This document shows positions 61,369 through 64,000 of a stretch of 64,000 nt of DNA, piece by piece. The stretch's first letter is position 1. Every line of letters starts with the position of its first letter. A program made the position numbers and the translations under genes. The stretch comes from an uncultured Prolixibacteraceae bacterium. Lineage in GTDB: Bacteria > Bacteroidota > Bacteroidia > Bacteroidales > FEN-979. The stretch is taken from the NCBI GenBank assembly GCA_964525995.1, contig CAZGIM010000005.1:3811-67810 (forward strand). The letters run 5' to 3'. Below the pieces are notes generated by a model, which saw nothing but the letters and a program-made list of their open reading frames with translations, was not told the origin of the DNA and ran no database searches.

Positions 61369-62496
61369 ATGCTGACCCTTTTTAAAAATGCCCAAATCTA
61401 CGCACCGGAACCACTTGGCAAGAAAGATGTCATGACCGGAGGAAAAACAATCCTTGCCGTGAGCGACCGGATCGATCCGCCCCGGGGAGTCGAATGCAAA
61501 ATTGTCGAATGCGAAGGACTCTGGCTGGTTCCCGGCCTGATCGACAGTCACGTTCACATTACTGGTGGTGGTGGCGAAGGAGGACCGGCAAGCAGGATGC
61601 CTGAGCTGTTACCAGAAATGATGATCGAGGGCGGAGTTACCACGGTGATTGGCTGTCTGGGCACCGATGGCATTACCCGGACTGTCGAAAGTGTGCTCAT
61701 GAAGGTAAAAACCTTACGAAGCCTTGGTTTCTCGGCCTGGATGTACACCGGCGCTTACCAGGTGCCAACCCCCACCATCACCGGCGACCTTGCCAGAGAT
61801 ATCACCCTGTTTGAAGAGATCATCGGAGTCGGCGAAGTAGCCATCTCTGACCACCGTTCATCGATTCCATCTTTCAACGAACTGGCCCGGATTACGGCCC
61901 ATGCGCGTGTGGCCGGGATGATCGGAGGGAAAGCCGGGATTGTCAATATGCACATGGGCGATGCAAAGGATCCGTTCAAACCGCTTCATGAGATTGTGGA
62001 AGGCACCATGATGGGCTATAAACAGTTCCTCCCCACCCATTGCAACCGGAATCCTTACATTTTCGAGGATGCAAAGGCGTACGGGAAGAAAGGGTATGTC
62101 GATATTACGACCAGCTCGTACCCTTACGATCCCGATTGCGAGATAAAACCCTCTAAAGCGCTGAAACAGCTGCTGGATGCCGGGGTTCCTGCCGGGCACA
62201 TCACCTTCACCTCCGACGGATGCGGCTCCCTGCCCACCTTCGATAAGGAAGGTAGGCTCGTGCGGATCGACATGGGACTGCCATCCTCCATCCTCCGTGA
62301 GATTAAAGAATCGGTGACCGACGAAAGCATCCCGCTGGAAACAGCCCTGATGGTCGCGACCTCAAACCCGGCCACCATCCTGAAACTGAAAGGAAAAGGG
62401 AACATTACAGCCGAGAACGATGCAGATATCCTGGTATTGGACCATGACTTTGGGATCAGGTACCTGATGGCGATGGGGAAAGGATTGATTGAATGA
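61369..62496 (+). CDS. iadA: Isoaspartyl dipeptidase (beta-aspartyl peptidase, amidohydrolase fold)
   Basis: IDSHVHITGGGGEGG, GCLGTDG, GAYQVP, AISDHRSS, HMGD, PTHCNR and TSDGCGSLP.F. Confidence 0.95.
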   Translation: MLTLFKNAQIYAPEPLGKKDVMTGGKTILAVSDRIDPPRGVECKIVECEGLWLVPGLIDSHVHITGGGGEGGPASRMPELLPEMMIEGGVTTVIGCLGTDGITRTVESVLMKVKTLRSLGFSAWMYTGAYQVPTPTITGDLARDITLFEEIIGVGEVAISDHRSSIPSFNELARITAHARVAGMIGGKAGIVNMHMGDAKDPFKPLHEIVEGTMMGYKQFLPTHCNRNPYIFEDAKAYGKKGYVDITTSSYPYDPDCEIKPSKALKQLLDAGVPAGHITFTSDGCGSLPTFDKEGRLVRIDMGLPSSILREIKESVTDESIPLETALMVATSNPATILKLKGKGNITAENDADILVLDHDFGIRYLMAMGKGLIE

Positions 62497-62552
62497 TAAT
62501 GGACAATTGAAAATGGACAATTGAAAATGGACAATTGAAAATTGAAAACGGA
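62497..62552. repeat. Heptamer tandem array (same family as 36005-36053)
   Basis: taatgga caattga aaatgga caattga aaatgga caattga aaattga aaacgga, starting directly after the iadA stop. Confidence 0.85.
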
Positions 62553-62715
62553 ACATAAAAATCTTCATAATCTGTTCGCTAATCGATGATCCCTTCTATG
62601 TTGAAAAACAACTATTATCTCATTTTTTTCTTTTTATCTTGTTGAAATGTTGATAACTGATTGAAAGGCTGATGTTTTGGAGGTTATCAATATTTCAATA
62701 AGAAATAATCCCTAT

Positions 62716-62865
62716 TTTCTGTATTCTTCTATCAGCAGTCACCCGTTTATTATCTTTTAACAGAGCTGCAAGATCACGTTTAACAAAAAATGAGAGAGCC
62801 GCAATCTAATCAAAGAAGGCAGTCATCCTGTTATGGAGCTGCAGGGATTGGTAGCGGTCTCTCTC
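62716..62865 (-). ncRNA. Candidate bridge RNA/seekRNA of the IS110 element
   Basis: Two consecutive lobes, each with outer stem, large internal loop, GCAG[C]/[UGA]CUGC stem and apical hairpin. Loop strands match the putative junction at 62589-62599. Confidence 0.65.
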
Positions 62866-62914
62866 GAAAAATTAACATATAAATTTAGGGGTTATTTCTG
62901 AGTTTTATATCATT

Positions 62915-63979
62915 CTACTGCAAGATTGTTTCATTCCTTAAACAATAATAGATCTGATTGGCAAGTTTCCGTGCTGTTCGAATCAGGGCAATATTCGGTT
63001 TCATTCGTTTTCGGTAATCTTTATACAGGTTAAGATAGAAAGAATCGGACCTGATCGCTGTCCAGGTCCCTTCCGTGATAAGATACCTTAAATGGGTATT
63101 GGCGCGCTTGGTTATTTTTCCTACATGCACTTTATCACCTGAGCCATGTACTCGCGGAACCAAACCTAAAAATGATCGGTAATTATCCGGACTTTTGAAC
63201 CGATGAATATCTCCGGTTTCCGTCAGAATAGTCATGGCTGTGATCACACCTATGCCGGGTATTTGAATCAATTTTGGATACACCTTATTGTATCTATCAT
63301 GGTTGGCTAACAAGCGTATCTGTTTAGTCATGTTCAAAAGCTCTCCACGAATAAAGGTTAAATACCGAACTCTGCTTCTCATGGCCTCTGTCGCCGATGA
63401 TTCATTCAATTGAATTTCACTTAACCATTTTATAAACCGTGCAGACCAGTGACTCCCTTTTTTGCTGAATATCTCAGGATATTTGATCCCATTTATCTGC
63501 AAAGAAGCTTTAATCCGGTTTTTTATTCTGGTATAGTCCATTGATAATTTCTCTCTTGCTCTAAGCAATTGCCGATCCTCTTCAATACTTATCGGTGGTA
63601 CCCATATGGGTTTCGCCTCTTTGTTTCTCATCGACTTGGCAATCTTCCTGCTGTCACGCGGATCACTCTTGCGTTCCTTATCCTTTTGTGTGGTGGGTAT
63701 ATCGGCTGGATGGATAACCATACAGGAAACTCCCTTAGATTCAAATTCCCGCTGAATGGAATAACCAAAATACCCAGCTTCATATCCAACCAAATAGGTA
63801 CCCCCAGGATAATTTTTATGTAAATGTTTGATCAGGATATCAGGTTCCGGATCCTGTAAAAATGTCTTTAATACCAATTCATCGGTTTGAATCGTCACCG
63901 TCCAGTTCTTTTTGTGAGTATCAATGCCACAATAAAAGTTTTGACCATTGAAATCAATTTGTTTACTTTGTGTCTGCAT
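62915..63979 (-). CDS. IS110 family transposase (DEDD RuvC-like + Tnp domain)
   Basis: CGIDTHK, YEAG, KSDPRDS (DEDD), IPGIG.ITA and GLVP...SG (catalytic Ser). Confidence 0.95.
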   Translation of the reverse strand: MQTQSKQIDFNGQNFYCGIDTHKKNWTVTIQTDELVLKTFLQDPEPDILIKHLHKNYPGGTYLVGYEAGYFGYSIQREFESKGVSCMVIHPADIPTTQKDKERKSDPRDSRKIAKSMRNKEAKPIWVPPISIEEDRQLLRAREKLSMDYTRIKNRIKASLQINGIKYPEIFSKKGSHWSARFIKWLSEIQLNESSATEAMRSRVRYLTFIRGELLNMTKQIRLLANHDRYNKVYPKLIQIPGIGVITAMTILTETGDIHRFKSPDNYRSFLGLVPRVHGSGDKVHVGKITKRANTHLRYLITEGTWTAIRSDSFYLNLYKDYRKRMKPNIALIRTARKLANQIYYCLRNETILQ

Positions 63980-64000
63980 AGGTCTTCGTTTTTAAGGTTA

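Follow-up and report, generated by a model that had tools for sequence, protein, structure and literature searches.

Near the end of the window (the whole stretch of DNA that was analysed, 64,000 nucleotides), the non-coding region downstream of an IS110-family transposase gene raises the question of whether it encodes a guide RNA that reads both an insertion target and the element's own ends. An initial annotation, made from the letters, had described two RNA lobes here and had predicted what the far junction would look like. We consider it highly probable that this region is the right-end non-coding part of a 1470-bp insertion sequence (IS) of the IS1111 group, carried by a wastewater bacterium that resembles Bacteroidota, and that it encodes a bridge RNA (seekRNA) reading the target and the joined ends.

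Transposase, element boundaries and empty site

The transposase gene was identified by its open reading frame, Pfam, NCBIfam NF033542 and motifs (62915–63979, minus strand), and it encodes a DEDD/Ser protein of 354 aa. Both the N-terminal RuvC-like DEDD domain (DEDD_Tnp_IS110, PF01548; E = 1.8e-14) and the C-terminal Tnp domain (Transposase_20, PF02371; E = 9.4e-22) are present, and the protein scores 214 bits against NF033542, 'IS110 family RNA-guided transposase' (cut-off 140). The closest solved structures are ISCro4 and IS621, with a match that covers the C-terminal domain only (E = 9e-9 for IS621). In the sequence alignment, D106, D109 and S280 align with D102, D105 and S241 of IS621; D20 (in GIDTH) and E67 (in GYEAG) are assigned as catalytic by motif only. 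GLVPRVHGSG at residues 272–281, in the C-terminal domain, corresponds to the GL-P----S/TG motif that serves as a criterion for the IS1111 group (PMC11187229).

The right junction reads gatgatcc-CT-tctatg (62585–62600). Its core dinucleotide is CT on the plus strand, or AG in the transposase sense (62593–62594), and the last base of the element at this end is 62595. The left end lies beyond window position 64000 and was read on L001, a Logan contig of the same locus with an identical transposase, which extends ~1.8 kb beyond that position (window coordinate = 65792 minus L001 coordinate). From the right side, the initial annotation had predicted gtgat-CT followed by host aatc at the far junction. 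The plus strand of L001 reads catacgat-CT-aatcactaat, in which the host aatc is exact and gat-CT is as predicted, but the gt is not. In the transposase sense this junction is GTGATT-AG-ATCG, and the sequence upstream of the transposase ATG is ...caaattagtGATT-AG-ATCGTATGTTTGAAAAGG... The left end (64062–64064) and the second core copy (64063–64064) are thus given in window-equivalent coordinates, and both are outside the window.

Contigs of other wastewater and sediment metagenomes were placed on L001 in search of an empty site. Contigs from X6 and X8 lead straight from L001 1727 to 3198, so that 1470 bp are absent and two letters (AG) fit either side. In four independent metagenomes (X6, X7, X8 and X9) the left flank past L001 1729 runs directly into the right flank GGATCATCGATTAGCG, and the loose end GGATCATCGATTAG comes after L001 1729 in four runs. 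These contigs join both flanks, and therefore the empty site is ...GTGATT-AG-GGATCATC... (gtgatt-AG-ggatc). The element is 1470 bp long, one core copy included, and it was inserted without target duplication beyond the shared core dinucleotide. The boundary that had been proposed at CT 62593–62594 is exactly where the empty-site contigs place it. If the right boundary were instead at the second GATTAG, 8 nt outward, GATTAG direct repeats would result, but this placement is excluded by the empty-site joint and by the conserved terminus CATAGA-AG. One contig from X7 joins the left flank of the window, shifted by 7 nt, to another right flank; it may be an assembly chimera and was excluded from the evidence. 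An empty allele was also sought via the neighbouring isoaspartyl-dipeptidase-like gene, where the contig ends at a tandem repeat and none was obtained. Circle-junction contigs were not seen among the metagenome contigs, in which rare forms would not appear.

The two ends differ in length, with 83 nt at the left (L001 1730–1812) and 320 nt at the right (L001 2878–3197), and the non-coding region is accordingly longer 3' of the transposase gene than 5' of it. Subterminal inverted repeats are found in both. The right repeat, TTTTCAACATA (62597–62607, minus strand; reverse complement ATGTTGAAAAA), begins 3 nt inside the element, and its partner ATGTTTGAAAA begins 5 nt inside the left end, outside the window. 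They match as 5+5 with one indel and are kept across relatives; subterminal inverted repeats of 7–17 bp are a criterion for the IS1111 group. Judged from its sequence, the element carries every IS110-family feature that was checked, as well as those of the IS1111 group, and it is assigned to that group by its strand order, its long 3' non-coding end, its subterminal inverted repeats and the GL-P----SG motif.

A two-lobed RNA structure and its conservation

The non-coding sequence 3' of the transposase gene matches both lobes of the initial annotation on the minus strand, and all that it had stated about their positions, stems and loop strands was confirmed. Lobe A, the target-binding loop domain (62792–62865, minus strand), consists of an outer stem, an internal loop, a GCAGC...UGACUGC inner stem and an apical hairpin, and reads from 62865 to 62792 as GAGAGAGACCGC / UACCAAUCCCU / GCAGC-UCCAUAACAGGA-UGACUGC / CUUCUUUGAUUAGAUU / GCGGCUCUCUC. 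Lobe B, the probable donor-binding loop domain (62716–62789, minus strand), has the same inner module and reads from 62789 to 62716 as UUUUUGU / UAAACGUGAUCUU / GCAGC...UGACUGC / UGAUAGAAGAAU / ACAGAAA. The minimum-free-energy fold of 62700–62880 reproduces the two proposed lobes (-45 kcal/mol, z = -2.1, with 8 of 200 shuffles equally good).

Both lobes are enclosed by a basal stem, P0, formed by inverted repeat I2. Its 5' arm GAAAUAACCCCUA (62887–62899, minus strand) and 3' arm UAGGGAUUAUUUC (62701–62713, minus strand) form 12 of 13 base pairs, 62899–62887 pairing with 62713–62701. When this stem is included (L001 2886–3096, 211 nt), the fold reaches -55.2 kcal/mol with z = -4.25, a value matched by none of 200 shuffles. 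The P0 pairing is maintained by covariation across the family, with a duplex energy of -14.3 kcal/mol for own partners and -7.8 kcal/mol for permuted ones (0/300). Since P0 encloses the lobes, the RNA domain starts ~16 nt after the transposase stop codon, reaching 5' to ~62899, and this start near the stop codon suggests a 3'-UTR-derived transcript. A promoter guessed earlier, TAAATTTA, located ~20 nt 5' of lobe A, was dropped, as the conserved basal stem is further upstream. A promoter and terminator scan with the sigma-70 consensus, which is ill-suited to Bacteroidota, returned nothing on the minus strand and no promoter on either strand. Among the metatranscriptome contigs of a related study, none lies over the IS non-coding region. 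In some subgroups P0 competes with the local outer stem of lobe B, and the donor guides would then sit in a multi-loop.

Relatives were collected by protein-guided scans, giving 17 genomic and 55 metagenomic loci with 36–71% amino acid identity, mostly from Bacteroidales, Rikenellaceae, Marinilabiliaceae, Lentimicrobiaceae and Dyadobacter. Nearly all have the right-end terminus TTTTCAACATAGA-AG, beyond which the sequence is unrelated, and begin at the left end with AG, four variable bases and then TATGTTTG; the right-end terminus is conserved in about 40 loci. With a covariance model trained on 15 diverse sequences, the two-lobed RNA is detected 3' of the transposase gene at 58 of 73 related loci (39–71% amino acid identity), and in the window the model matches only once, beside the transposase gene. 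In the model alignment, 81% of stem cells are paired, compared with 36–50% in slid-partner controls, and changes on both sides are seen in 33 of 34 base pairs; none of 500 shuffles reaches the observed values. Helices 1–3 of lobe A and 4–5 of lobe B covary. A structure-blind MAFFT alignment likewise gives compensatory changes in 16 of the 18 pairs called by RNAalifold.

In the closest relative (L020 1718–1884, 71% amino acid identity), lobe A is present, but what follows it bears no relation to lobe B and no right end can be recognised; the copy is truncated or rearranged, or else the contig is chimeric. In L055 (~128–200), a right-end terminus TTTTCAACATAGAAG is found ~45 nt upstream of where the next copy has its left end, which looks like two closely spaced insertions in tandem.

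A third hairpin, absent from the initial annotation, lies between lobe B and the right end (62632–62708, minus strand; inverted repeat I1, 26 nt, 85% complementary). Its arms, UUGAAAU / AUUUCAAC, resemble the subterminal repeats. In L043 they are almost the full repeat (CUAUGUUGAAA/UUCCAACAUAG), and in L057 they are likewise nearly full. Folds of relatives contain this hairpin in the Dyadobacter and L007 groups as well as in that of the window element; in the L004 group a different long hairpin takes its place, and the L006 group has none. An Rfam scan of 62000–64000 (E <= 10) gave no family match, with only weak miRNA-like noise on the third hairpin. In this Bacteroidota clade, the bridge RNA could conceivably be part of a larger 3'-UTR-derived RNA in which, in several subgroups, the third hairpin is an RNA mimic of the paired element ends; we think this unlikely. 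If true, the hairpin might serve as an extra transposase-binding or regulatory module, outside the IS621 and seekRNA models.

Guide strands, target flanks and joined ends

The longest common run between loop strands and their own flanks or ends was compared, over unique guide/flank pairs, with that obtained after permuting partners. The sequences tested are related, and hence the permutation counts given below are not strict probabilities.

For lobe A, both strands follow the flanks. Its 5' strand UACCAAUCCCU (62843–62853, minus strand) pairs over 6 bp with the transposase-sense core and right flank, AG-GGAT, and across the family the reverse complement of this strand shares a run of 6.58 with its own core and right flank, compared with 3.51 for permuted partners (0/5000). 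Its 3' strand CUUCUUUGAUUAGAUU (62803–62818, minus strand) contains UGAUUAG, the sense of the left flank and core, and so pairs with the bottom strand; here the values are 5.47 and 3.34 (0/5000). For lobe B, the 5' strand UAAACGUGAUCUU (62770–62782, minus strand) contains GAUCUU, which pairs with A-AG-ATC of the joined ends, that is, the last right-end base, the core and the start of the left end. The reverse complement of this strand gives 4.52 with its own joined ends and 3.74 with permuted ones (0/5000), and the variable 4-nt spacer of the left end (ATCG, ACCC, GTGT, GTAT, TTTG or GCTG) covaries with it. The 3' strand UGAUAGAAGAAU (62723–62734, minus strand) contains AUAGAAG(A), the sense of the right-end terminus and core. 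Its test against the terminus (own 5.88, permuted 5.67, 533/5000) is without power, since AUAGAAG and CATAGA-AG are conserved in nearly all relatives and both sides are nearly invariant. Covariation is thus observed for the stems, for both lobe A strands with the flanks and for the lobe B 5' strand with the left end; the lobe B 3' strand and right end, both invariant, are consistent with pairing. All features tested for the target-binding part of a bridge RNA are present, and the donor loop is supported in part. Same-sense and wrong-strand controls were flat. Direct or inverted repeats are common among the targets, which explains a weak signal in two wrong-flank controls.

About 30 of the 58 loci give distinct guide/flank pairs, and these include several cases of natural reprogramming. 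L002 has the guide GUUUAG and the flank GTTTAG, and L003 has GUUGAG and GTTGAG. Dyadobacter frigoris (L010) carries AGACAGCCC in both guide and flank, and D. luteus (L015) carries AGACACCCTCA in both. Such reprogramming lends indirect support to recombination that would follow changed loops. In an L004-like subgroup, the register of guide and right flank is shifted by 1–3 nt.

Additional bases beside the guides covary with the non-cognate partner. The trailing AU of the lobe A 3' strand equals the first two left-end bases, in a handshake-like manner, and the three bases after AG in this strand tend to equal the start of the left end (TTT/TTTG, GCT/GCTG, GTT/GTAT and, here, ATT/ATCG). In lobe B, it is the right flank that the last three bases of the 3' strand tend to match. 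The handshake tests gave 43/10000 and 46/10000, and swapped controls were not significant. Handshake guides have been described for IS621 (PMC11208158), and these sequence comparisons are evidence that bases of the same type exist in IS1111-type RNAs.

In the window copy, the individual pairings are UGAUUAG (7), AUCCCU (6), GAUCUU (6) and AUAGAAGA (8). Only 4+2+4 contiguous bases match its own target, and the left-end guide matches only 3 bases plus the core. The initial annotation had itself pointed to the shortness of its matches (6–7 nt), which are indeed weak taken alone; they are validated because the far junction was predicted, the empty site was found and covariation extends across the family. 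The same evidence bears on the suggestion that the lobes are either a host repeat or an ordinary structure of a 3'-UTR or terminator, with junction matches that arose by chance. Matches of 6–8 nt in the window copy, a z of only -2.1 for the two-lobe fold alone and the lack of an Rfam family match would all fit such an origin. However, the far junction was predicted beforehand and then met, an empty site exists, the stems covary and the guides covary with their flanks across 58 loci, no terminator-like site is present, and the window holds a single copy of the structure, linked to the transposase gene. A chance origin is refuted by the covariation and empty-site data, and we give it practically no credence.

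It could also be that only lobe A guides, as a short target-finding seekRNA, and that the protein recognises the ends through the subterminal repeats, with lobe B having a structural or protein-binding role and an inherited similarity to the ends. Consistent with this, the pairing of the nearly invariant right-end terminus and lobe B 3' strand is without covariation support (533/5000), the lobe B 5' strand of the window copy pairs only with A-AG-ATC, and IS1111 transposases were found to bind predominantly a short RNA with target matches (Siddiquee et al., PMC11187229). The left-end spacer nevertheless covaries with the lobe B 5' strand (0/5000), and the handshake-like tracking of the right flank by the last three bases of lobe B also speaks against a purely structural lobe. 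Moreover, lobe B shares its loop geometry and core register with lobe A, with CU(U) on the 5' strand and AG three bases from the 3' stem. We regard guidance by lobe A only as quite improbable. A two-loop bridge guide RNA is very probably encoded 3' of the transposase gene.

Transcribed strand, predicted mechanism and insertion context

On the CT strand, each loop has a 5' strand with the sense of the left arm and CT and a 3' strand complementary to CT and the right arm, which is the loop logic of IS621 (PMC11208160). Gene and RNA are on the strand opposite the CT strand, so the top-strand match comes first in element orientation. The same reversal of strand order, with the top-strand match 5' of the bottom-strand match, is reported for IS1111-type seekRNAs, which derive from the downstream non-coding region (Siddiquee et al., PMC11187229). 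The initial assignment of lobe A as target loop and lobe B as donor loop is supported, and the 5'/3' strand polarity is as published for IS1111-type elements.

Each loop has one strand of each sense, and complementarity alone therefore leaves the transcribed strand unfixed. The functional RNA could come from the opposite (window plus) strand, with an IS621-like polarity in which the donor loop is first and the target loop second. Besides the undecided complementarity, the stems contain similar overall numbers of G-U and A-C (110 and 101), which is not decisive, and the sigma-70 scan, whose consensus is not appropriate for Bacteroidota, found no promoter on either strand. The guide-target mismatches, in contrast, favour the transposase sense, as 50 are G-U compatible for an RNA of that sense and 14 for an antisense RNA. 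In most relatives UU stands opposite the core AG, where an antisense RNA would have an A-C mismatch, and published IS1111 seekRNAs show a downstream origin and the same match order as here. A functional RNA from the plus strand is, in our assessment, very unlikely.

The bridge RNA would accordingly be read in the direction of the transposase gene and would fold into two internal-loop lobes on a basal stem, with GCAGC...UGACUGC closing each lobe. The lobe A 3' strand UGAUUAG, equal to the left target flank and core AG, would pair with the target's bottom strand. The lobe B strands GAUCUU (5') and AUAGAAGA (3') would pair likewise with the joined ends of the excised circle, ...CATAGA-AG-ATCG..., for which the predicted junction is ...TTTTTCAACATAGA-AG-ATCGTATGTTTG... 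The transposase, with its DEDD RuvC-like and Ser-containing Tnp domains, would bind both lobes and bring circle and target together, and strand exchange at the 2-nt core would leave one core copy per junction and no other duplication. For transcription, protein binding and catalysis, this scheme draws on published relatives.

When the right end (62595–62612) was joined in silico to the left end (L001 1728–1741), the product contained GTTG-N20-TATGTTTG, and joined ends gave TTG-N20-TAnnTTTG in 28 of 30 distinct elements. We take this to be the -33/-7 promoter form of Bacteroidota. The left subterminal repeat would thus double as the -7 box of the predicted promoter. Junction promoters are known for IS1111 and IS110 elements (PMC11187229). 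The start codon of the transposase is covered by a perfect 13-bp hairpin of the left end, GCAUAGGUCUUCG / CGAAGACCUAUGC (inverted repeat I8, 100% complementary), with the 3' arm at 63976–63988 on the minus strand and the 5' arm beyond 64000, at L001 1747–1759. The hairpin is kept with compensatory changes in 36 relatives (-15.1 versus -10.1, 0/500), and it may block translation of read-through transcripts.

Among known systems, IS1111 elements with a 3' seekRNA or bridge RNA (ISEc11, ISPa11, ISKpn4 and ISPst6; PMC11187229) share with this element a short left end and a long, RNA-bearing right end, subterminal inverted repeats, the GL-P----SG transposase motif, the order of top-strand match 5' of bottom-strand match, insertion without duplication beyond the core, and a tendency to insert into short repeated or REP-like targets; in both, a promoter is expected to form across the circle junction. 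For IS1111 elements, Durrant et al. 2024 (PMC11208160) had also predicted right-end bridge RNAs. Unlike the characterised proteobacterial IS1111 elements, to which it has at most distant sequence similarity, the element belongs to a Bacteroidota-associated clade. In many IS1111 orthologues the donor-binding bases are in a multi-loop (Durrant et al., PMC11208160), whereas here target and donor guides are both in simple internal loops with an identical GCAGC/UGACUGC closing module. The junction promoter reconstructed in silico also differs in being of the presumed Bacteroidota form.

IS621 (IS110 group; PDB 8WT6; Durrant 2024, Hiraizumi 2024) likewise has a target loop followed by a donor loop, the same loop-strand logic on the CT strand, a CT core, handshake-type bases 3' of the right guides, and DEDD and Ser catalytic residues. 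In contrast to IS621, where the RNA is 5' of the gene, the RNA here is 3' of it, the CT strand is opposite to that of gene and RNA, long subterminal repeats are present, and the protein match is restricted to the C-terminal domain. Going by its description, ISPpu9 with the Ssr9 small RNA (IS110 family, Pseudomonas putida; PMC12288879) is also among the closest systems.

Bridge RNAs of this kind have been known since 2024, including those in IS1111 right ends. Mechanism and location were both published in that year and the NCBI label already reads 'RNA-guided', so that the present element counts as a new, well-verified example of a mechanism already known. It illustrates that a bridge RNA can be recognised, and an unseen junction predicted, by reading raw sequence with care. 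A further product is a structure-aligned set of 58 loci in an IS1111 clade that is associated with Bacteroidota and has been little studied; the set is useful for annotating IS ends and targets in Bacteroidota genomes, and the orthologues are raw material for programmable recombinase engineering.

The initial annotation had also proposed that this insertion used an imperfect target, and this is borne out. The guides predict TTTGATT-AG-GGATTGGTA, and the actual site is GTGATT-AG-GGATCATCG. Sibling copies that are ~98% identical (X6 and X9) sit at GGCATT-AG-GCATTGGCC (GCATTGGCCATTAG), a site that matches the distal ATTGG part of the guide. The sibling copies (X6–X9) vary at one base of the lobe A 3' strand, L001 2981 (window 62811), where UUUGAUUAG becomes UUUAAUUAG or UUUCAUUAG, and they have a TT insertion between the lobes. 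Such variants possibly represent ongoing guide drift inside one IS lineage.

The insertion is intergenic, between an amidohydrolase (isoaspartyl-dipeptidase-like) gene (61369–62496, plus strand) and a peptidase M28 gene (L001 106–1704, minus strand). Between the dipeptidase-like gene and the insertion site is a 14-bp tandem repeat, TGAAAATGGACAAT, in 3.5 copies (62494–62548). Its contig word depth is 187–1177 across four metagenomes, with many different flanks, which points to a short repeat that is widespread. Insertions of related IS elements often lie inside short tandem or REP-like repeats, among them AATGAGTTGAG, CACATTAG, CACAAAG and CCCTGAG...GTCGAAGGG. On the other side, only 23 nt separate the left junction from the start codon of the peptidase M28 gene, and at this distance the IS may affect the promoter of that gene.
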